Part shown: one piece after another, positions 48,767 through 64,000 of the stretch
Numbering within the stretch: position 1 is the stretch's first letter
Layout: each line of letters opens with the position of its first letter
From: Hypanus sabinus
Lineage: Eukaryota
NCBI RefSeq assembly: GCF_030144855.1
Contig: NC_082706.1
Coordinates: forward strand, 185,876,001-185,940,000
DNA: 64,000 bases
Reading direction: 5' to 3'
The notes under the pieces: model-generated
Seen by the model: only the letters and a program-made list of their open reading frames with translations
What the model was told of the DNA's origin: nothing
The model's database searches: none
Made by a program: the position numbers and the translations under genes

Positions 48767-51700
48767 TCTCTTCTGGGGAAGGTCTGGCCATACAAAAAGG
48801 AGGGGCTGCACCTGAACTGGAAAGGGACCAATATCCTGGCAGGCAGATTTGCTGGAGCTGTTGGGGAGGGTTTAAACTAGTTTAGCAGGGGTGGGGGTGG
48901 GAATCAGAATGTGAGTGCAGACATTAGGGTAGTAGAACAAGGGCATGATGCTGTCTGTTCTGAGTTGGTGGGGAAGGACAGGCAGGAGACAGAACATAAA
49001 TGTAGCCAGTTAGAGGGGTTAAAATGTGTCAATTTAAATGCTAGGAGTATTAGGAATAATGGGGATGAAATTAGAGCGTGGATCAGTACGTGGAACTACG
49101 ATGTTGTGGCCTTTATTGAAACTTGGCTGGAGGAAGGGCAGGATTGGCTGATGCAGGTCCCGGGGTTTAGGTGTTTTAAAGGGAATAGGATGGGAGGTAG
49201 GAAAGGGGGGGGGGAGTAACATTACTGGTCAGGGATAGTATCACAGCTATAGAAAGGGAGGACGCTGCAGAGGGAGTGTCCACTGATCAGTGTGGGTGGA
49301 AGTCAGAAATAGGAAGGGATCAAACACTGTGCTGGGAGTAGTCCACAGGCCCCCAAATAGGCCTCAGGACACCGAGGAGCAGATAAGTAGGCAGATTTTA
49401 GAATGGTGCAGGAAATACAGGGTTGTACTTATTGGTGATTTTAACTCCCCTCATATTGACTGGCACCTCCTGACTGCAAGGGGGATAGATGGGGCTGAAT
49501 TTATCAGGTGTGTTCAAAAAGGATTCCTGACTCAGTATGTGGACCATCCGATGAGAGGAGAGGCCATACTGGATCTAGTTCAAGGTAATGAACCTGGTCA
49601 GGTGACAGACCTCTTGGTGGGGGAGCATTTTGGTGAGAGTGACCACAACCCCCTTAGCTTCAGCATAGCGATGGAAAGGGATAAAAACAGACAAAATGGG
49701 AAAGTGCTTAACTGGGGAAGGGCTAACTATGAAGGGTTGAGGCAGGACCTAGAGAGAGTAAATTGGAAACAGATGTTCAAGGGTGAAAGCACAGAAGTAA
49801 TGTGGAGGAAGTTTAGGGACCACTTGAGCTGGGTTCAGGATAGGTTTGTCCCACTGAGGCAAGGAAAAAATGGTAGGAAAAGGGAACCATGGCTGACGAA
49901 ACATGTGAGGCAACTCGTCAAGAGGAAGAAGGAAGCACATAGATATAAGATATATGTTAGATATAAGAAGCAGGAAGCAAGAGGGGCTGATGAGAAATAT
50001 AGGGTAGCCAGGAAGGAGCTAAAGAAAGGACTTAGGAGAGCTCGAAGGGGGCACGAGAAGGCCTTGGCATGTAGGATTAAGGAGAACCCCAAGGCATTCT
50101 ATGCATATGTAAAGAACAGAAGGATGGGGCTGCTAAAGGATAAAGAAGGCAACATGTGCCTGGAGGTGGAGGAGGTTGGGGAGGTCCTAAATGAATACTT
50201 TGCTTCAGTATTCACAAGTGAAAAGGTCCTTGATTGGGGTGAGGTCAAAATAGAACAGGCCTGTGTGTTGGACAATGTGGAGATTAAGGAAGAAGTGTTG
50301 GATTTTCTTAAAAACATCAAGATTGATAAGTCTCCAGGGCCAGACGTGATATACCCCAGGTTGCTGTGAGAAGTGAGAGAAGAGATCGCTGGTGCAGTAG
50401 CTATGATTTTTGAATCCTCTTTGGCTGCAGGGGGGGGTATCAGAGGATAGGAGAATGGCAAATGTAGTTTCCGTGTTTAAAAAGGTAATAGGGAGAATTC
50501 TGGGAACTATAGGTCGGTGGTCTGCAAACTATTGGAAAGGATTCTTAAGGATAGGATCTACGAGCATTTGGAGAAGTACAGTCTACTCATGGATAGTCAA
50601 CATGGCTTTGTGAAGGGAAGGTTGTGCCTCACGAGCCTAATTGAGTTTTTTTGAAGAGGTAACAAAAGAAATTGATGAGGGTAGGGAGATAGATGTGGTC
50701 TACATGGATTTTAGCAAGGCATTTGACAAGGTCCCCCATGAAAGACTTATCAAGAAAGTCATGAGACATGAGATCAGTGGAACCTTGGCTGTTTGGATAA
50801 ATTATTGGCTTACAGGAAGAAAGCAGAGGGTAGTAGTAGAAGGAGTATCCTGCCTGGAGGTTGGTGACTAGTAGAGTGCCTCAAGGATCTGTCCTGGAAC
50901 CCCTACTCTTTGTGATTTTTATAAATGACCTTTATGAAGAGGTGGAAGGATGGGTGAGTAAGTTTGCGGATGACACGAAGATTGGAGGAGTTGTGGATGG
51001 AGCTGTAGGTTGTCAAAGGTTACAAGAGGATATAGACAGGATGCAGAGTTGGGCAGAAAAATGGCAGATGGAGTTCAATCCAGATAAGTGTGAGGTGATC
51101 CATTTTGGAAGGACAAACCAGAAGGCTGAGTACAGGGTTAATGGTCGGTTACTTAAGAGTGTGGATGAACAGAGGGACCTTGGGGTTCAAATCCATACAT
51201 CCCTCAAGGTCACTGCACAGGTTGATAGGATAGTTAAGAAGGCCTATGGGATGTTAGGCTTCATTAATAGGGGGATTGAGTTCAAGAGTAGAGAGGTCAT
51301 GTTGCAACTCTACAAATCTTGGGTGAGACCACAATTAGAGTATTGTGTTCAATTCTGGTCACCTCATTATAGGAAGGATGTGGAAGCTATGGAGAGGGTG
51401 CAGAGGAGATTAACCATAACATTGCATGGATTGGAAAACGAGTCCTATGAGGCAAGGTTAGCAGAGCTGGGACTTTTCACTTTGGAGCGTAGAAGGATGA
51501 GAGGGGATTGATAGAGGTCTACAATATTATGAGAGGCATAGATAGGGTGGATAGTCAGTACCTGTTTCCCAGGACATGAATAGCAAACCCCAGAGGGCAT
51601 ATGTACAAAGTTAAGGGAGGGAAGTTTAGGGGAGACATCAAGGGTAAGTTTTTTTTCCCCCACAAAGGGTTGTGAGTGCCTGGAATGACTTGCCAGGGAT

Positions 51701-51882
51701 GGTGGTGGAGGCTAAAACATTAGGGGTATTTAAGAGCCTCTTGGACAGGCACATGGGTGAAAGAAAAATAGAGGGTTACAGGGTGGTGTGGGTTTAGTAT
51801 TTTTTTCTTTTTTCAAGGATTATAAGGGTCAGCACAACATTGAGGGCCAAAGGGCCTGTGTTCTGCTGTAGTATTCTAGTGT
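48767..51882 (+). mobile_element. CR1 LINE, 5'-truncated in ORF1, near-complete ORF2 with frameshifts/stops; candidate 7-bp TSD
   Basis: ORF1 end 'EGLHLNWKGTNILAGRF'; APE 'NLNARSIRN..ETW', 'IGDFN', 'GESDH'; RT 'VYMDFSKAFDKVPH', 'PQGSVL', 'FADDTK'. The sequence ctagagc occurs at 48760-48766 and 51883-51889. Confidence 0.95.
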
Positions 51883-51889
51883 CTAGAGC

Positions 51890-51990
51890 CTGGGATGAAA
51901 GGTCTTGGCCCAAAGCATTGATTCATATTTCTTTCCATCGACACTGCCTGACCTGCTGAGGTACTCCATCGTTTTGCATGTGTCACTCTG
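51890..51990 (+). repeat. Degenerate Penelope pLTR short repeat
   Basis: 'gatgaaaggtcttggcccaaagcattga...ctgcctgacctgctgag..ctcca'. Confidence 0.6.
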
Positions 51991-52457
51991 GGGATTAGGA
52001 GGCAGCTTTGGCTAGTTTATCTCATCAAATGATTGATTAGCCCATAAGGATATCTGGACTCAGGATTAAATTATGAGAAATGATCTTAGAAGCAAGCTTC
52101 ATTTTCTCTCAAATTTAAAATCTGTATGGTCAACAGATGGAAGCTTTCAAGAAATTAAGGGTTTAACTTGATTTACTAGTGCTGAGGAATCAAGAACAAA
52201 TGGTATTGTCTAATTAGAACTAATTCTAATCAGGAGGGAAGTCAGGATGTATACTGAATTTGAGAAATCAGGAACTTCCTTTTGCATATGGCAATTGATG
52301 CTCAAGACTAATAGAACATTGTTAATGTGTTATGCAAAAAGTTTGTTGAATGAGCACTTGGAATGATCAAACTATACTTGATGAGAATAAAAATCATTTG
52401 TCCACCAAAACCCATCATTGTGCAACAGCCAGCTGAAATATTATGCTGTTGTCTATA

Positions 52458-52878
52458 GGTGGGAGGCGGGGTTGAGATAATCTCTACCAAAGGAGGTATA
52501 AGGAGCTCCTGTCCTCTGCTACACCTTCCTGCAAATTACCCTTGGGCAAGGTGTAGCACATGCTTAGCCCCCACCCTACCCCCCAAATCAGGGTTATGTG
52601 AAGCCACAGGAGCAGGATAGTCGTATAAGCAACTGGTGCATATCTCAAGTCTTAGTTATGTGACCACAAATGCCTGACAGACAATCTCTGAAGAGTATTG
52701 ATAATGGTGAGAGGCATCCATCTTCTAACAACACTGCCTAAAAGGAAATGATAAATCACTTCTGTAGAAAAATTTGCCAAGAATAATCGTGGTCCTGATG
52801 TAGACCATAATTGCCCACATCACATGACATAACTCATAATGATGATGATCATACGACATGGCACATAATGATGATGAG
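52458..52878 (+). mobile_element. Non-coding SINE-like element with RTE-type 3' end and (GAT)n tail
   Basis: The 3' part 'aaggaaatgataaatcacttctgtagaaaaatttgccaagaa...' resembles RTE/BovB tails. The tail 'cataatgatgatga' is duplicated, and there is an 11-bp perfect stem at 52517-27/52548-58. Confidence 0.5.
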
Positions 52879-53499
52879 ACTATAGGGTTATTGAGTGGAT
52901 TAGTGATTGAAGAGAATAACAGAGAGTCATGGGTCAGAGAGTATTTGCAGTGGAGAAGAGGAAGGATTGGGCAGAAGGAGGTTCGATGGAAGAATAGAGA
53001 GCTAGAGTTGGAATTGGTATAGGAATGATAAAGTCAGGCTTAGGGAAGAGAGGTAGATTTGGGAGGAAGAGGACAGAAAACAAGATCTACACTAGAGTGC
53101 AATGAAATTCTAATTCCTTGTTGACCAATACATTGGTCAATGCGAAACAGTGGTTTGGCACACAGTTTGGAGTGCATTCTGATGTAGTGCAAAAAAAAGA
53201 TAAAGTGACAATCATGAGATAACCGAGAGAGGTAGAGCCAAGACTACATGATTGTAGCAGCAGATGTACAAGAAGTGACTAGTACCAGAGTCTAACGGCT
53301 GTAGGGTAGAAGCCACTCCTAAGTTTGAAAGTCCTGAACATACAGATCCTGCATCTTCTTCAAAAAGGTCAAAGAGCAAAAAGAAAACAGCCAGTGTGGC
53401 AGGCATGCTTGGTGAAACTACTGGCCTTCCTGAAGCAGAGCACTGTGAAGGTGACTGGATGGAAGAAGTGAGAGAACTATGTTGAAGTGGACTGGGGTC

Positions 53500-55490
53500 C
53501 ATAAGATTTAAGACATAGGAGCAGAATTTGTTTGTTCCGTCGTTCCCTCATGGCTGATACTGGATCCAATTCATTCCCATACACCTGCCTTCTCACCATA
53601 TCCTTTGATGCCCTGATGGATCATGAAGTGATCAACTTCTGCCTTAAATATAAGGCCATAAGACCATAAAGACATAAGAGCAGAATTTTGCCATCTGGCC
53701 CATCGAGTCTGCTCCACCATTCAAACATGGCTGATCCTTTTCTCTATCTCTTCCTCAAGCAAGTTCCCGGTCTTATCCCCGTACCCTTTGATGCCACGTC
53801 CAATCAGGAACTTAATCTCTGCCTTAAATACCCCCAACAACCTGGCCTCCACAGCTGCATGTGGCATCAAATTCCACAATTTCACCACCCTTTGGCTACA
53901 GAAATTTCTCTGCATCTGTTTTTAAAGGATGCTCCTCTCTCCGGAGAATATGCCCTCTTGTCCTAGACTCTCCCACCATGGAAAACATCCTTTCCACATC
54001 AACACTGTCTAGCCCTTTCAACATTTGAATGGTTTCAATGAGATCCCCCCCATCCTTCTGAATTCCTGCGAGTACAGGCCCAGAGCCATCAAACGTTCCT
54101 CGTATGATAACTCTTTCATTTCTGGAATCATCCTTGTGAACCTCCTCTAGACCGTCTCCAATGACAGCACATCTTTTCTAAGATGAGCTCAAAACTGTTC
54201 ATGATACTCAAGGTGAGGCCTCACCAGTGCCTTATAAAGCTTCAGCATCACATCCTTTCTCTTGTATACTAGACCTCTTGAAATGAATGTTAACATGGCA
54301 TTTGCCTTCCTCACCACAGACTCAACCTGCAAGTTAACCTTCAGGGTGTTCTGCACAAGGACTCCCAAGTCCCTCTGCATCTCAGATTCCTGGATTTTCC
54401 TATTAGAAAATAGACCGCACTATTACTTCTACTACCAAAGTGCATGACCATGCGTTTTCCAACATTGTATTTCATTTGCCACTCTCTTGCCCATTCTCCT
54501 AATCTAAGTCCTTCTGCATCCTACCTGTTTCCTCAACACTACCTGCCCCTCCACCAATCTTTGCATCATCTGCAAACTTGGCAATAAAGTATCTATTCCA
54601 TCATCAAAATAATTTATATACAGCATAAAAAAAAGTGGTCCCAACACCGACCCCTGCAGAACACCACTAGTCACTGGCAGCCAATCAGATCCTTTCATTC
54701 CCACGGACAGATATACACATGGACTTGACCTCCACCACAACCTGTAGCAAAGCATTACACAGATTTACTATTCATTGGCTAAAAAAAATACTCCAAGTTC
54801 AGCCTGGCTAGTGTCTTATAAAGGCTCAGCATTATCTCCTTGCTTTTATATTCTATTCCCCTTGAAATAAATGCCAACATTGCATTTGCCTTCTTTACCA
54901 CAGACCCAACCTGTAACTGAATGTTCTGGGAGTCTTGCACGAGGACTCCTAAGTCCCTCTGCACCTCTGATGTTTGAACCTTCTCCCCATTTAGATAATA
55001 TTTCCTAACACTGCATACCACCTGCCACTTGTTTGCTCATTTTTTCCATTTTGTCTAAGTCCTGCTGCAATCACATTGCTTCCTCAATGCTTAGCTACCC
55101 TTCCATCTATCTTCGTATCAGCCACAAACTTTCCCACAGTCATCAATTCCATTGTCTAAACCACAAACTATGTGAAAAAATACTGACACCTGAGGAAAAC
55201 CACGTCACTGGCAGCCAACAGAATTCCTACTCACTGCCTCCTACCTGTCAACCATTCTGCTATCCATGCCAATATCTTTTCTGTAACACTATAGGATTTT
55301 ATCTTGTTAAGCAGCCTCATGTGTGGCATCTTAACACCTTCTGAAAATCCGAGTAAATGACATCCATTGCCTCTCCCTTGTCTACCCTGCTTGTTACTTC
55401 CCCAAAGAACTCTAACAGATCTGTCAAGCAAGACGCCCCTTTACAGAAACCATACTGACTTTGACTTATTTTATCATTAGTCTCCAAGAC
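53500..55490 (-). mobile_element. Two nested CR1 fragments (younger ~53657-54703 inside older)
   Basis: There are two CR1 tails ('cataaga..agacataggagcag' at 53500 and 53657) and two 'LQV.SVV.KANAML.FISRG' blocks (54189-54380, 54779-55021). The older copy resumes at ~54705. Confidence 0.85.
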
Positions 55491-55954
55491 AGCATAATGG
55501 GTTTGAGTGTGTTTAGGAGTTTGTAGGGGTCAGTCAGGGATATGATCAGGCCACAGTCATGAATGTCAGTAGTCAGAGCAATAAGTAGTAAAATCAGTGT
55601 TGAATGCCAATGGAAAGGCCAAGGCCTCACAAACCAAAGATGACCAATTTTGGTCTAAGTTAAAGGGAACCCTTCCTTACCTGGTCTGTTGGCATGACCA
55701 AAAGTCATCCATTATTTGTGACTTTGCCTACTATTCCACCTCATTCCTAATATAATCCAGCCAACACTTCCACAATCCTCTTCCAGTAGGAAGAACACTC
55801 CATTTCTTCCCTTTTGGTAATTTGGATGGGTATAGTGAGGGGTGAGGGGGAGGTGAGACACATGGGAAGTGCAACTTTCACACAAGAATACACTGAAAAC
55901 CATTTTCCACAGCTTTTACTTTACAATTGCTTGCTTTAATTCATTAATTTGCTT

Positions 55955-56458
55955 ACTTTGATGGTTGCCCAATGACAACAGGAAACCTGCACAGGAGAGT
56001 TTTTAAAGTGGAAATGCCATTGTGCAGATGCAGTTGCACTCTCAACCTCAGAAGCCCGGGTGCAGTGGAATGAACAAGCGTCACAAACTGGGGTCTTCCT
56101 TGCTTATAGTGGGTGACCATGACACCTTCTGTGCCTTGCCCTTCGCTCCCCCACAGAGCGTGGTAGTACCACCTTTCCAGCCATTGGATCTCACCGTAGG
56201 TCTCATCTGCCCCGTCTGCCAGAACTAAGTTGGGCTTGCCCCAGTCTGAACGGGGTATGAGGCAGTCAACTACCCTCACTTGGTTTAGCCTGCTTGTCAA
56301 AACACTGTACCGGAGAGTGGGCCAGTATCACATGCATACAGCTATTTGGAGCCACAGGTGAGAGCAGAGCATCCGCTGGCGATCGAAGGTCATGAGCTGC
56401 CTCAGCATGGACACGACAAGTCCCTTCACCAGAAGTGCTATCCCTTCATGGACACCCC
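55955..56458 (-). mobile_element. RTE-type retroelement 5' region (non-coding) beginning with an HDV-like ribozyme fold
   Basis: A GC-richer island starts ggggtgtccatgaagggatagcacttctggtgaagggacttgtcgtgtcc, resembling RTE 5'UTRs. No RT ORF follows. Confidence 0.55.
56273..56458 (-). ncRNA. HDV-like self-cleaving ribozyme (degenerate copy)
   Basis: P1 GGGGUGU/ACUCUCC, P2 CUCUCACCUGU/ACCAAGUGAGGG, P3 GGC/GCC, P1.1 CC/GG, P4 UGUUU/AAGCA and J4/2 GGCUAA all occur in canonical nested order. Confidence 0.6.
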
Positions 56459-57404
56459 TTACACCCACTTACTTTAATACCTTTGCAAATTGATCATTCT
56501 TACCTGTACCACTTAGAATGCTGCCAGGCTTGTATCATCATGTAAACTTTATTCTATCACTTTCAACCCCATCACTTAGGTCAGAGATAAATATTTTAAA
56601 CAATTCCAGCCACAAAACAGATTTTTCAAAGAAACTACTAATTGTACCTTGCTAGTTTGAGTTCTTGCTTTATGTCTCCCAATGCTCGGCCACTTTCCTA
56701 GCCAGGCCAATCAGTTACCATCAGTTCTGTGAGCTTTAACTTTTCTAACAGTCTCTTATGAGGGACTTCATCAAATGTCTTCTAGATGACATCTGGCGGC
56801 AGTTCCCTGTCCACTAATTTAGTCACCTCATTAAATAATCAGTCCTGTTCATCGGGCCTGACCTATCCTCAGCAGATTCATCTGGCTCTCTCCGAACAGC
56901 TGAATGTTGTCAAGGTGTTAAAAATGAATTCCCATGAGCTCCAAAGTGTGAAAGAGGTAATAGCTGCAAAATGTGTATTCAAATTAAACTGCTTTAATGC
57001 AATTTTACTATGTACAATCTCTAGTTAGATCCAATTTCATGTTAATTTCAATTACATTTAGATCCCTTTTAACAAAAATTTTGACATGCAAATTCTCATC
57101 AAATAGAAAGTAAACAAGAGCTTTATGTAATTATGAAGACATGCACATTTACATTAATGTAGGATATTCTCATTATGCTTAAAATTAGGTAAGAAATAAT
57201 CTCATAAAGATACTTGGTATATGTACACATTCCTTAACTGATACTCAATGCTAATATGTAGAAAGAATAGCATAGTATTAACAAATAATTTCAATAATTA
57301 TTTATCAAACTGTCACAATTTCTGGTATTTTTGAATCCCTTTAAGTATGTTTTGATTGCCTAAGTTGTTTGTATACAAACTTGCATATTATTAAATCCCA
57401 AGCA

Positions 57405-59195
57405 TTTTCATGTCAACATTAATGTGTACCTGTATATAATGTATATAGAAACGAGACGTTTCCTTGAACCAGGGTATGAAGCACATGACACACATAACAC
57501 GTGAAACTTATGAAGGTAAGGATTAAAATCTACAGATGACTCACACATAACTAACAAAGTAAAGTACATTAACATTATATATTGTAAGATACGGAACAGA
57601 TTAACCAGTGACACTTCGAATCTGATGCGTCAGGGAGTACAAAAACCTAATAGCCAGGGGGAAGAAACTGTTTCCCATCCTGATCGTTCCTGTTTTTATG
57701 CATCGGAGTATCCTGCCTGATGGTAGAAAGTCAAAGAGGAGGCTGGATGGATGGGTGGGATCCATAAAAATACTGAGGGCCCTGTGTATGCAGTGCTCCT
57801 GATTAATGCCCCTGTTGGAAGGTAGGGAGACCCTTATGATCCTCTCTGCTGTTCTCACTGTCCTTTGTAGGGACTTCAGGTCCAATGCTCGACTGCTCCC
57901 ATACCAGATGGAGATGCAACTTGTCAGGATGCTCTCAATGGTGCTCCCGTAAAACACAGTTAAGAAGTGGGGTGGGAGCCTTGCTTGTCTCAATCTTCTT
58001 AGGAAGTGGAGGTGCTACTGTGCCTTTTTGTTCTGGGGGAGTTGATATTCAGGGAGCAGGTGAGGTCATTAGTTATGTGAACTCCCAGGAACTTGGTGCA
58101 CTTAACTCTCTCTACAGAGGAGTCATGTATACGCAGAGGGGAATGGTTTGTCTGCACCTTCCCGAAGTCCTCAACGATTTCCTTTGTTTTCTCCACGTTC
58201 TGGCTTCGGTGTTCCTCTCACACCGGTCCACCAGCCGCTCCACTTCCACTCTGTACTCCGTCTCGTCATCGTTTTTGATGAGGCCAGCCACTGTTGTGTC
58301 ATCCACAAAGTTGATGACAGGGTTTGAGCTGGATCCTGTGACAGAGCCGTGCATCTTTTGAACAGCTGTGGACTGAGCACACAGCTCTGGGGAGTGTCAG
58401 TGCTCGGTGTAAAGGGACAAGAGATGTTGCTCCCCACACGGACTGACTGTGGCCTTTCTGCTAAGAAGTCCAGTATCCAATTGCAGAGGGAAGTGTTGAG
58501 ACCCAGCGAGGACAGTTTCCCCACCAGTTCCTGTGGTGCTAAATGCCGAATTGAAGTCTGTAAACAGCAGCCTGGCACCTGAGACCCCATTTTCCAGGTG
58601 GGACAGGACAGAGAGGAGGGCAGAGACTATTGCATCATCAGTAGATTGATTTGAGGGATAAGTAAACTGGAAAGAATCCAGTGTAACCAGGAGAAAGGCT
58701 CTAATGTGCCGCTCAAAGCATTGTATAATGGTTGATGTTAATGTCACTGGACAATAGTCATTTAGACAGGTTACTGTCACCTTCTTTGGCACAGGAATGA
58801 TGGTGGCTGCCTTGAAAACCGAGGGGACAATGGGCTGTCCAGGGAAATGCTGGATATACCCATCAGCGCCTCGGTCAGCTGGGCTGCACAGTCTTTCAGA
58901 ACCCAACCTGGTACATTATCAGACTCTGCAGCTTTGTGTGGGTTGACTCTGGCCAAGGTCTTCCTCTCCTCAGCTTCAGCCAGACGGAGTGTCTGCTCCC
59001 CTGGGGAGAAGGTGCCTTCCTCACCTGCACTTTGTTCTGCGCATCAAGCCGAGTGTAGAAGACATTCAGCCTCTCAGGGGGTGAAGCATCCTGGTCACTG
59101 ATGCGCAGGGTAGACCTGCGGCCTGTAATCCTCTGAACTCCCTGCCACATGTGCCTCATGTCTCTGGTATCACAGGAATGGCTGTAAATTCTATG
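57405..59195 (-). mobile_element. Rex1/Babar LINE, 5'-truncated RT pseudogene
   Basis: Contains 'FKAATIIPVPKK..CLNDYCPVTLTS', '[17 protein letters not shown]', '[11 protein letters not shown]', 'FYGSTIESILTSCISIWYG' and 'LPSGR..NSFFPLAIR'. Frameshifted. Confidence 0.92.
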
Positions 59196-60159
59196 ACAAT
59201 GCTTTGTGTCAACATTTCTGCTCAATGGCCCTTCGTCTGAACATCTTAATATTTCCCTTATTGCCTGGATATTGTTTCCTACATCCCATTTTGCATTCTC
59301 ATTTGTGTAATGATGAAGGACAGTCATTGATTTGAATTGTTGATTCTGGTTAACACTCAACAGATGCTGCCTGGCTTGCTGAATAGTTGTGGCCTTTTCT
59401 GTTTTTATTTCACATTCTTAGGTTTTGCAGTTGGCTTTTTACTTCAAGTGAGAGCTGGGGGAGAATGGTAATTTCCTTTTTAAATCAGAAGCGTTGAGGA
59501 CTGGCAGGACAATATCTGACTTCCAGAGCAGGTGGCGAGAGCCTTGAGTATTTTTGCATTAAGGCCCTGTTATACTCAGCTGTTACATTGGTGTTTACAT
59601 GTCCAAACACCAGGAAAAAAAAAACACTCCAGAACAGAACTCCATGGACAGAGCTAACCAGGGAAATGGGGGGAAATTTCAAAGATGTGCTCAAAGTATT
59701 TGAAGAAATGCAATATTCCAATTGGCTCCTGGGAATTTCTCAGCCATTCATAGAGGAGAAGGTGCATTTCAGATGATATTGATTATCTTGAACCCATGAA
59801 GATGGAGTACAAGTGGTCACCAGATCACAAACTGACCACCTACCCAGCCTGTTTGTCACCTCCTGCCCCATCTGAGAATCGTATGCTATTCCCATAACTC
59901 ACTCATCAGCTGCCTCAGAGTCTACAATAGCTAAAAGAGGAACCAGGTCATCCTTGATCCCAAAAAGCAGGAATAAAATAAGTTTACATTTTTTTAAATG
60001 CTTCAGGATACAAAAGCATAAATAAACCACCAACTTCTCATCAAGACTGGGGCAGGGACATAAATATGACCTCACCAATGTTGCCACATCAGAAGAGCAT
60101 CATTTGATGTCTTATTTTTACCTGTGATATGTCCTCCAAAAATATAACAAACATGAACA

Positions 60160-60260
60160 TGTGTAGAATGTTGGAGGAACTCTACAGGTCAGGCAGCATC
60201 TTTAAAGGGATGTATACAGTCAACCTTATGGGCTGAGATCCTTCATTGGGTCTGGAAATG
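60160..60260 (-). repeat. Degenerate Penelope pLTR short repeat
   Basis: Plus strand 'aatgttggaggaactctacaggtcaggcagcatct...cagtcaacc...gggctgagatccttcatt' is the reverse of the pLTR motif. Confidence 0.6.
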
Positions 60261-63200
60261 AACATTAGTTGGAGGAGCTCTTTAAGGCTCTAGTTATTAT
60301 ATTTGAAGAAATGTAAATTGGAGTAATCCTGATAATTTTATGCGATATTTAAAAGGAAGCTTTTTAACTTTGGTTTCTTCTTCAGTTTGGTTTCTTAATA
60401 GTTGTGTAATTTGAAATATTAAGAGGTTAATGTGCCTTCATGGCTTTCATTATATAAATGTGAATTCAAAGGGGATGTTGGAAAAGACACCAAGGGAGTC
60501 CTTCACCTGGCATTGAGGGAAATAATAAAATGTTCTTTTATTCATAGTAGAAAGCCTTTATAATTTGCTCCTGTAATGTATTTTGTATTCATGATTCTCC
60601 TTTGTGACATTCATGTATTCATGTCTTACATAAATAAATCTTATGCCTCAAAAAAAGCTAAACTATTTTAAAAGGATATTTATGAAAACATCAGGAATTT
60701 TAATGCAGAATTACAAATATATTGAATGCATAAAATTATGCATTTAATAGATGACTGGCAGTAAGTTGTCAGACAATAATACAACTGAGCCATTTTAATG
60801 ATACCATAAATTGAAAAGAGAAACATGAACAGCTGATAAATGTCAGCCAACTCTGGGTTGGATTCCCAACCATAGGTGGGATTGGATTGAAACTACACTT
60901 CAGTTTGTCCCTCCGACCTGATAGCATCTTTGGGTGCAATTAATTTTGATACCAAGTGCAGGTTTTGTGTGTTATTTGTGCCATTTCAATACAGTTCACC
61001 CTCAGAGGTGAAAGATTGGTCACAAGGTTGGACGGGATTCAAGTTCTGTTTATTACAGCATTGTGAAGTGGTATCTTCGAAGTTATTTAAGAAATTGAAG
61101 CATGGAAAGCCTGGCTGGACTCTAGAAGATGCAGAACCCCCAGGCTTGGACGTGGTTAGAGATGATATCAGTCTGAAATAGAACCGAGTCCAGGTATTTG
61201 GAAGAAGGGAGGAGGACAATGCCCAGTTGCCTATGAATGCCAGACTCTCCAACCACTGCTCAGCTATTGAAAATACTAGAATATCGTCAATGACCTCATT
61301 AGGTTAGCTGTAGTAAGAGAAGAAAACTATTACTACCTACTTTACTATTCTTGTTTGAATCTCAGGAGTTTAGTTATTAAGAGAAAGATACTTACCAAGC
61401 ATCAAACATGATTACAAGCATTGGGGATATAGTGAGATTTTGACCTTAACCAGAAACTGGATAACAGGCAGTTAGAATAACTTCAGATGTTTACCTAATG
61501 GACTGGCTGGGTGTTTTAACCTGTTCAGCTGAGCAGGACCCCACCCAAAGGTGACTGGATGTTTTCATTTGCAAGAGAATCTTCAGGACTCGGGTACAAT
61601 TTTAAATAAGAGACCCAATTGGAAAGTTTGAATGAGTTCACTCCAGTGAGAAAGACTGGTGCCCAGAAAATGCAATAAAAGGTTAATGTAAAAATATAAT
61701 ATAAGAAGTCAGCATATTTTGAGCAATTCTCTATCCAAACAAAAGCAGTAGAAGAGCTCTTTCTGGCCACAGAAAGATTTTTTTTATTTCAGTTTCCAAG
61801 AAACCACTCACCAATGGTCACTGGATACTAATTGGCTGGAATGACTGCCAATCAATCACTTTTACTTGTACCAACAGGTCACTATGGTGCTCTGTGATGT
61901 TCTAACATTTCCTTTGTAACTTATATGTGAATTGGATGGGAATTGAGTTTTTAACAAGCTGCCTTTATTGTGGGCTTAATTGGAGTGTAAAGACGTTCTG
62001 GGATGTAAAGCAAAGAGTTTAAGTTAAGGTTAAAATTAGTCCCTATACTTCGATGGACAAAACAAGTAACAAGAGGTACAGTACAAAACAAAAAAAAGGA
62101 CATACACTGGTTTCTGCAGACTGAGGAATTGCTAGTATTGATTTTAGAAGCACTAATTGATCTGAAACAGGTTGGGAAGTGAATAGGAGAATCAGTTGAA
62201 GAATGAGTCAACAATAGAAGCCATACTTAAGAAATAATACTTATGAAGAGAGTAAAATGTCCATTTATGTTTAGAAGGAAGACCATAATAACAGGAACTG
62301 TATTGTAATGGGAATGGTTCAAGTGCTTCTTAAGTGATGGTGCATGCCATAAGCTTAGCTGACTAATAATTCTCAATTGGCAATGAGCAAGCAATGACTT
62401 CTTGAAGTAAATTCTCAGCCACTATTTATTCTGTTTGCCCTGCGTAATGACCGTCCTCCTTCAAAGACCATGCTAAGTTCTTAGTGAATCACAAGATTCA
62501 CTGAGGGTGAGTAAGTTACAAGTACCAGATATTCAGATGATTTGCACTCTACTCCTAGATCAGTCACGGATGCAAAGCACATTTTTGGAATATGGTCTGG
62601 CTAATGATAAGCCTCACCAAGACAGAGCATCAGAGAGCCAAAGCTCAGCATATTGTAGGAAGCCGTCGAGGGATATCAACTGCTTCTCCAGAGGGTGCCA
62701 CTGAACTCCAATCATCCTCATAGTTGTTTGCTCTCTACGCTAAAATTGTGATGCTGCAGTGAAAGGTCTGAAATTGAAAAAATATTGGTAAATCCCTGAC
62801 TACTGGACTTCATGTACATTAAGTGGTTAATGTGTTTGACACCCACTATGTGGAGACAGGGTAAAAACTCTTTCCTGTGAGGAAGTTAGTCGAGGAAGTT
62901 GTTCGTTGGGAAGGGTACGGTTGATTGCAAGTTGCACCTGTGGTGTTTGTGACATTCCACTGAAGTTGACTGTTTTCAACTTGAGCAACTTTGATAACCA
63001 ATATATGTATCCAGCATGTGCTTGAGTATTGTTAACTGATGGTCTGGCATACACATGTCCTCCAGTGCATTCTGAGAGCAGTTAGTGCTGTGAGACCCAA
63101 TGGTGGTTACAACTTTGAGAGCGTTTGGGTCAATTGTACAGGAGAGCTCCAATTTAGGGGAAAGACTATGGGAACCATTCTTCCATGAACTCACAGAACT

Positions 63201-64000
63201 GCAGTCTAATTTATCCGAACCCTTGACAATGTCATGAAATGAAGGTCATGACCTCTAAATACAGAGTTGTGAGCCTGAATCGACAAATGGCCCCATTAAC
63301 AACTTGGCCTCCCTCAGTTCATCCAATTCTTATTCCCCCAGTAGGGAACTGACTCCCTAAGAGAAACAGTCTTAACACAGTCATATCTACCTCAATAAGT
63401 TCCCTTAAGGAATACAATCAGGGTTTCCAATTTTGTAAGATAATAAGGAATCTACAGTCAGTTTGATATTTTGATATTCCCCTTGATTTTTGTTCCACTG
63501 ACATCAGTATTCAGCAGCAAAATAATTAAAGAATACTCAGAAGACAGTCTTACAATTTAATTCCACCTATTTCAAGTTACCAAACAACTAGAACATCTTC
63601 CTTATGCTTTGTCAGATCAAAGCAGGAAGAGTGGTAATTCACTATTAGACATTCTTTGAGGATTTAAATATAGGTTGTAACTAACAGGTGACTTATTGCT
63701 GAGCCAGGTGTCAATGGTACATTTGGAAGTACATGGTGATGTGATTCTTAAGGGCAGTAATTTACTGAGAAGTCTATCTGTTCAATTTAATCTTTCCAAA
63801 ATTAGACAGAAACAAGTGGGGGAAAATAGGTCTTTTTGAATTACCTTTTAAATTAACTGTCATATATCTTTTCTTCTACATAAGTGCTTTAAGCTTTATC
63901 CCATGTACTGACTGTTAGTTGCTGGTAGTCAACTATTTACCTAAAATTTATGTAATAACCATTAATCCTTCACTGCAGACAAAGTAGACATCAGTTCCAC

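Follow-up and report, generated by a model that had tools for sequence, protein, structure and literature searches.

An ORF-less, RTE-derived repeat family of Hypanus sabinus with a predicted HDV-like ribozyme head and a hairpin inside L3

Introduction

Ribozyme-headed bipartite derivatives of LINEs are known for the RTE, R2 and L1Tc/ingi elements (PMC5786205, PMC3774820, PMC4035085, PMC6765202). Such bipartite non-autonomous elements usually keep the 5' end of the LINE, and RTE 5' ends are predicted ribozymes (Kojima, 2018, PMC5786205). Here, RTE-N2_Lch, RTESINE1/2, WALLSI3, MAR4_MD and Bov-A join an RTE 5' end to a short 3' end and harbor neither an ORF nor a tRNA head; the text of that paper gives no ribozyme structure for its bipartite elements.

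For the R2 ribozymes and the R2 SIDEs, which are likewise ribozyme-headed and internally deleted, a model has been proposed in which a duplicated P1 strand is cut at either copy. A cut at the inner copy removes the duplication and a cut at the outer one enlarges J1/2 (Eickbush, 2013, PMC3774820). In the L1Tc/ingi group, the HDV-like ribozyme Pr77 heads the short non-autonomous derivatives NARTc, RIME and SIDERs; some of these heads have been shown to be active and many are decayed (PMC4035085). In the nested double pseudoknot of the ribozyme drz-Agam-2, J1/2 is large and structured (P1.2) and the linkers are short; these features together with an extended P2 have been shown to speed its cleavage (Webb, 2016, PMC4908430).

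Here, we describe an element on the minus strand of a 64,000-nt stretch of Hypanus sabinus contig NC_082706.1 (positions 185,876,001 to 185,940,000; the window). It is a decayed copy of a dispersed ORF-less family of about 530 nt, family A, and the head of this family keeps an HDV-like double pseudoknot fold, from which self-cleavage is predicted. Family A resembles the bipartite RTE elements described by Kojima in its RTE 5' end, its short 3' end and the lack of an ORF and of a tRNA head. It differs from them by a longer 5' part (~505 nt), a very short tail (~30 nt) and the presence of several sister lineages with swapped tails (PMC5786205). With drz-Agam-2 it shares the nested double pseudoknot, the large structured J1/2 and the short linkers, as well as a long P2 (11 bp, against 12 in drz-Agam-2). 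Unlike drz-Agam-2, it contains a hairpin of 5–6 bp in L3, and the closing strand of P1.2 repeats the P1 5' strand in tandem (PMC4908430). In R2 the duplication stems from the 28S target DNA, whereas here it consists of the element's own first 9 nt and insertion is dispersed (PMC3774820). The lineages look like both outcomes of the R2 duplicated-P1 model within one genome, the duplication being fixed in lineages A, B, C and F and the heptamer mostly single in lineage E (PMC3774820). Pr77 belongs to a different clade and to different hosts, and, as a minimal ribozyme of 77 nt, has neither a large J1/2 nor a hairpin in L3 (PMC4035085).

The type of element is already known, and the fold with a hairpin in L3 is a variant missed by Rfam. 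RTE ribozymes were reportedly drawn by Ruminski in 2011, and the drawings may include an L3 hairpin. This source aside, neither an HDV-like ribozyme with an L3 hairpin nor the present family was found among the titles and abstract openings of the papers that literature searches listed.

The Element in the Window

The element extends from 56467 to 55960 on the minus strand and is 508 nt long, flanked by target-site duplications (TSDs) of 8 bp. Its parts are as follows.

56468 to 56475, minus strand: 5' TSD AAAGTAAG, matching the duplicate in the other flank
56461 to 56467, minus strand: outer heptamer, the P1 5' strand of the family and the element's 5' end; the G1 position, 56467, is T in the window copy
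56450 to 56458, minus strand: repeat of the heptamer (inner heptamer), which closes the J1/2 domain (P1.2) in the family folds
56365 to 56460, minus strand: structured domain of J1/2; the 3' strand of P1.2 lies at 56374-56367, and the family folds have linkers of 3 nt and 2 nt
56354 to 56364, minus strand: P2 5' strand; in the family, P2 is extended to 11 bp and has one 3' bulge
56351 to 56353, minus strand: P3 5' strand GGC
56323 to 56350, minus strand: L3, reading U-CC-NNG-UA, then the inserted hairpin (56342-56324), then one G
56319 to 56322, minus strand: P3 3' strand GCC and an extra C specific to this copy
56312 to 56318, minus strand: P1 3' strand, with two substitutions relative to the family (56316, 56314)
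56310 to 56311, minus strand: GG, pairing with the CC of L3 (P1.1)
56290 to 56305, minus strand: P4 hairpin, with 5 bp in the window copy; that of the family has 6 bp and differs from lineage to lineage by compensatory changes
56285 to 56289, minus strand: J4/2 GCUAA, with 56288 as the predicted catalytic C
56273 to 56284, minus strand: P2 3' strand, with one mismatch in the window copy
55982 to 56272, minus strand: remaining RTE 5'-UTR-derived body, by alignment and by a by-eye comparison with RTE-9_LCh 171-279
55960 to 55981, minus strand: RTE 3'-tail-derived end; a hairpin and a short ACC repeat in the family, with 11 nt deleted here
55952 to 55959, minus strand: 3' TSD AAAGTAAG, matching the duplicate in the other flank

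An earlier note, made from the letters of the window, had read an HDV-like double pseudoknot at this place, and the segments it listed are all found where it put them. This applies to the P1 5' strand at 56458-56452, an 87-nt J1/2, the P2 5' strand at 56364-56354, GGC, a 28-nt L3 and GCC. It likewise applies to a P1 3' strand at 56318-56312 that pairs at six of seven positions with the inner heptamer, GG at 56311-56310, a 5-bp P4, the C at 56288 and the P2 3' strand. The note had further taken G1 at 56458 as the edge of the element. This does not hold, since the TSDs place the 5' end 9 nt upstream, at 56467, on a mutated upstream copy of the heptamer. The absence of an ORF downstream follows from the element stopping after 508 nt.

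A single copy alone would be weak evidence, and the motif is accepted as real because of the family. In the 4.04-Gb genome, a first look gave 3,913 candidate copies of the element, the 40 scored ones having 71–76% identity, and at the 29 loci fetched no more than about 500 nt are homologous to the window copy. A 20-nt motif covering P2, P3 and L3 has 990 exact matches in the genome, and its control has none. Among 28 independent loci anchored at the tail, 14 are near full length and the others are 5'-truncated, interrupted or inverted. Truncation at the 5' end and TSDs are expected products of target-primed reverse transcription. The copies diverge from the family majority by 13% on average and the window copy by 18%.

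Origin from RTE-Type LINEs

Longer elements with the same head were reached via a variant copy, L096, which derives cleanly from lineage B by deletion. One of them, L169, is about 4.1 kb long with a TSD and carries broken Exo_endo_phos and RVT_1 segments; in full-length elements with this head these domains were matched with E-values of 4e-7 and 3e-11, respectively. Lineage E, a second long lineage, was discovered by the same route. Positions 1-505 of the family A majority align at 69–75% to the 5' UTRs of the two EN/RT-bearing lineages. The last ~30 nt agree by eye with the tail of lineage E at 25 of 31 positions and with that of lineage B (L169) at 23 of 31. The end of the body (last ~60 nt) is, by eye, about 80% identical to the 5' UTR of RTE-9_LCh as given in the supplement to PMC5786205. 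From this homology to both a 5' UTR and a 3' tail it follows that family A is an internal-deletion derivative of an RTE-type LINE. The assignment of the partner lineages to RTE would be in line with their single EN-RT ORF layout, a C-terminal CCHH-like motif and the likeness of their 5' UTR to RTE-9_LCh.

This agrees with the earlier description of an HDV-like 5' fold heading a non-autonomous and ORF-less element of RTE type. The element is an internally deleted LINE derivative and not a Pol III SINE: instead of beginning with a small RNA (tRNA, 5S, 7SL), it aligns to RTE 5' ends from position 1. ARAGORN found no tRNA gene in L001 and L071, nor did Rfam match such a head.

An autonomous parent of family A did not emerge from the searches made. 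One pattern search gave four loci, none of them a LINE as judged from 300 nt upstream, and a further search with exact patterns, which can miss old copies, gave no match. Translation upstream of eight tail-anchored loci revealed no RTE ORF running into the tail. A LINE family bearing DUF6451, for which 30 of 150 scored loci were inspected, was considered as partner and rejected, since its tail differs and it does not resemble family A. This family (L111-L140) is young, with copies ~95% identical, long open frames and its own tail.

Short elements of family B (L083, L089-L109, L149-L168; 940 candidates) have the head and ~380 nt in common with the lineage B RTEs and a different end of ~150 nt with the motif GGCAAACCAC and ACG repeats, which suggests tail exchange with another RTE derivative. 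Four short lineage E/F derivatives (L266, L281, L275, L287) contain by eye a tRNA-like segment after the ribozyme-bearing 5' UTR, 330–560 nt after P3, in which ARAGORN found no tRNA. In L266 and L281 the RTE tail follows this segment, and in L287 there is tandem repetition. This order reverses the usual arrangement, where the tRNA head sits in front.

The HDV-Like Fold of the Family Head

Majorities were built from family A (53 copies), family B (30 short and 17 long copies) and family C (7 copies). In all three, P1 forms seven of seven pairs with the outer heptamer, compared to five of seven in the window copy. P2 has 11 bp with one bulge, P3 is GGC/GCC, P1.1 is CC/GG and J4/2 reads G-C-Y-A-A. 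The pairing of P1, P1.1 and P2 that the earlier note had expected from a consensus is thus restored, along with P3 and J4/2. The inner heptamer pairs with a strand just before P2 and thereby closes a J1/2 of 94–97 nt, leaving linkers of 3 and 2 nt; the J1/2 domain is predicted to be 8–13 kcal/mol more stable with the inner heptamer than without it.

Across five lineage majorities, drawn from 24 of 30 rows given and for C from no more than three, 46 of the 51 positions of the core are invariant, and invariance outside the core amounts to 0.45 in J1/2, 0.40 in P4 and 0.37 in the downstream UTR. The U and G of L3 and the candidate catalytic C in J4/2, placed by the earlier note at 56288, are kept in all five. 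Among 27 hand-picked, well-preserved copies, 86.9% of the cells are paired overall, compared to 38–47% in slid controls, with 92% for P2, 95% for P3 and 85% for P1.1. Compensatory changes occur in P4 (CG to GC in 5 of 27 rows, CG to UA in 7 of 27) and at the base of the L3 hairpin (GC to AU in 4 of 27). Over these 27 hand-picked rows, pairs with two-sided change do not exceed shuffles (8 vs. 8.2; 309 of 500). Since P1, P1.1, P2 and P3 are nearly invariant, conservation is demonstrated rather than the covariation of P1, P2 and P3 that had been anticipated.

Nested-fold z-scores are weak, with +0.78 for the window copy and -1.07 for the best copy. The Rfam families of HDV type, proposed as a check, gave no match in window positions 50000-64000, nor in six further loci that contain good copies. 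The sole match in the window of a relaxed HDV descriptor devised here is at this site, against a random background of 0.17 per 64 kb (30 sequences). A sub-threshold twister-P1 match with the core motifs was noted at L149:2961-3015 on the plus strand (27 bits, E 0.025).

The L3 of HDV-like ribozymes is canonically 7–8 nt long. Here, it has 26–28 nt with a hairpin in all lineages. Lineages A and E share the stem GCUGU/ACAGC, B has GCUGU/GCAGC and C has ACUGU/ACAGU; due to these lineage-specific compensatory changes the hairpin is placed inside L3. The alternative considered in the earlier note, a canonical P3 of GGC/GCU with the hairpin between P3 and P1, was rejected, as lineage C has ACU and the hairpin partner has changed too. 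Of the two options in the note, the hairpin in L3 thus holds, but its GUAU/AUAC register is specific to the window copy, the family stem being GCUGU/ACAGC; similarly, the extra C is present at 56319 but is a mutation of this copy and absent in the family. The eight nucleotides before the inserted hairpin line up with the canonical HDV L3. Lying next to the active site, the hairpin could impair catalysis.

Where the Copies Start

The family head consists of a heptamer, AT and then an identical heptamer. Among 74 copies chosen without regard to the outer part, conservation reaches background between -9 and -10, and 45 of the 74 match the outer 9-mer at seven or more positions, compared to none for the next 9 nt upstream used as control. 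TSDs were identified in 23 of 60 copies, where 18 ends lie at -10 to -7 and three at -1 to +1; this set was partly chosen by head pattern, and in the control 4 of 470 mismatched pairs gave a TSD. An unbiased sample of 80 loci was collected by an internal motif only. The inner G is reached in 54 of them, of which 31 match the outer heptamer at five or more of seven positions, and seven of the eight TSD-defined ends are at -11 to -7, the eighth being near the inner G. The base preceding the outer G is T in 36 and G in 4 of 54. For three sets of DNA data from other organisms, the 5' loose ends with the best support are at the outer G, within one base of it, or 3–4 bases inside, and the inner G is absent among the best six loose-end rows per data set. 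The boundary, the TSDs and the loose ends together therefore show that 56458 is not the 5' end of family A. A second cut register in A, B and C was considered, but the few starts near the inner G fall within a continuum of truncations and do not establish it.

Lineage E has mostly a single heptamer and starts there (six of eight listed heads; four of four in the unbiased sample), with two heptamers in the copies L204 and L208. It retains the partner strand for the inner heptamer and adjoins the duplicated-head lineage F in a midpoint-rooted tree, for which reasons loss of a heptamer in E appears to be the simpler reading. Extra head repeats are found in L094 and L026. As a guess, the 9-nt repeat may have arisen by re-priming of the reverse transcriptase on a short G-run.

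Proposed Mechanism and Rival Readings

We hold it to be highly probable that the element is an ORF-less derivative of an RTE 5' UTR, whose HDV-like head was likely self-cleaved at the outer G (56467) and which was likely copied in trans. Here, read-through transcription of the element would be followed by release of the RNA through self-cleavage 5' of the outer G1 (56467) by means of the J4/2 C. The ~30-nt tail would then be bound by an RTE protein acting in trans, and the released RNA would serve for target-primed reverse transcription. The inner heptamer, held in P1.2, is predicted to be blocked as a second cut site and to pinch P1 and P2 together as in drz-Agam-2. In one run guessed as RNA, 45 contigs contain the element head and show neither its strand nor its 5' end.

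An unlikely alternative takes the inner heptamer (56458) as both P1 strand and cut site, with the outer 9 nt re-made by reverse-transcriptase slippage at each insertion. This would suit the window copy, whose P1 3' strand pairs better with the inner (six of seven) than with the mutated outer heptamer (five of seven), as well as the single-heptamer starts of lineage E, the extra head repeats that do arise (L094, L026) and the minority of A/B/C copies starting near the inner G (1 of 8; 3 of 23 with TSD-defined ends). However, most A/B/C copies carry one outer repeat and no more, sharply bounded at -9, a partner strand dedicated to the inner heptamer precedes P2 in every lineage, and the gain of 8–13 kcal/mol in predicted J1/2 stability depends on that heptamer. 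The position of E beside a duplicated-head lineage in the midpoint-rooted tree favors loss in E. Cleavage as such is questioned by a further reading, which we regard as quite improbable: the fold would be kept for RTE protein binding, as an internal promoter or for translation initiation, with the L3 hairpin disrupting the active site. An L3 four times the canonical length would fit to this, and in L1Tc and R2 the HDV-like heads serve as promoters, in an IRES-like manner and in protein binding (PMC6765202). Yet the positions conserved across lineages are the catalytic ones (U, CC and G of L3; G-C-N-A-A of J4/2), and the 5' ends fall at the predicted scissile G, with G rare just upstream (4 of 54).

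Coming back to self-cleavage at the outer G, a more detailed reading is offered tentatively, with slightly more doubt than trust on our side. The heads would be an active variant of the HDV family with a hairpin in L3 and two cut sites created by tandem duplication of the P1 strand. Four lineages would have fixed the outer site and recruited the inner repeat as a rate-enhancing P1.2, and in one the cut would have moved to the inner site, with loss of the duplication. If cleavage is true, the conservation of an L3 hairpin over five diverged lineages would extend the HDV fold in the very loop that forms the active site, and searches by descriptor and Rfam would undercount such ribozymes in animal genomes. 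The duplicated P1 strand would then be a test in natural sequences of the R2 model of cut-site shift and J1/2 growth (PMC3774820). If the reading with two cut sites is true, the growth of J1/2 would have been caught in the act, in a class of structures overlooked by standard searches of animal genomes.

State of the Window Copy

The window copy has a T at G1, two changes in the P1 3' strand, an extra C after P3 and a P2 mismatch. Furthermore, its L3 hairpin is decayed and the conserved G of L3 is A at 56345; in a Nasonia R2 ribozyme, the G-to-A change in L3 abolished cleavage (PMC3774820). Due to the loss of G1 and of the conserved L3 G, the copy is likely no longer active. The site is covered by contigs of four other organisms at ~96–97% identity with the element in place, and the repeat depth in these organisms extends from bin 55959 to bin 56468, the same span as the TSD-bounded element. 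In organism D, a contig lacks 18 nt across P3, P1 and P1.1. The insertion thus appears to be old and neutrally decaying. Retention of this copy as a functional ribozyme of the host, an exaptation comparable to CPEB3, would accord with its presence at the orthologous site in four other organisms. This is largely refuted and hardly credible in view of its divergence from the majority (18% vs. a mean of 13%), the lost G1, the L3 G-to-A change, the extra C, the mismatches in P1 and P2 and the 18 nt missing in organism D.

Surroundings and Arrangement of Other Copies

The surroundings in the window (53500-55500 and 56550-56900) are other repeats, which we take to be CR1-like by their look, and there are many self-matches within the window.

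Among the other copies, the 5' part is inverted in L057 and L206. Tandem repeats of 66 bp comprising tail plus flank are present in L040-L042, L043 and L010; a short unit is expanded internally in L043 and L067, and L053 contains an array of a longer unit.

Copies of family A recur at two fixed positions in a repeat of ~850 bp, in 8 of 80 unbiased loci: at the first position in L240, L242, L256, L267 and L294, and at the second, in opposite orientation, in L265, L268 and L276. The host repeat is found without insertion at L137:2270-3099, and insertions into it are a top loose-end class in three other data sets. The host repeat resembles a remnant of a DNA transposon of the pogo/Tigger type. 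The recurrent insertions reflect either hitchhiking inside a DNA transposon or an insertion hotspot.

Near-identical copies with a spacing of ~2 kb and common flanks occur in L002, L005, L006 (G000:C87, ~10.25 Mb), L004 and L007. This cluster is a segmental or tandem amplification rather than a series of new insertions.
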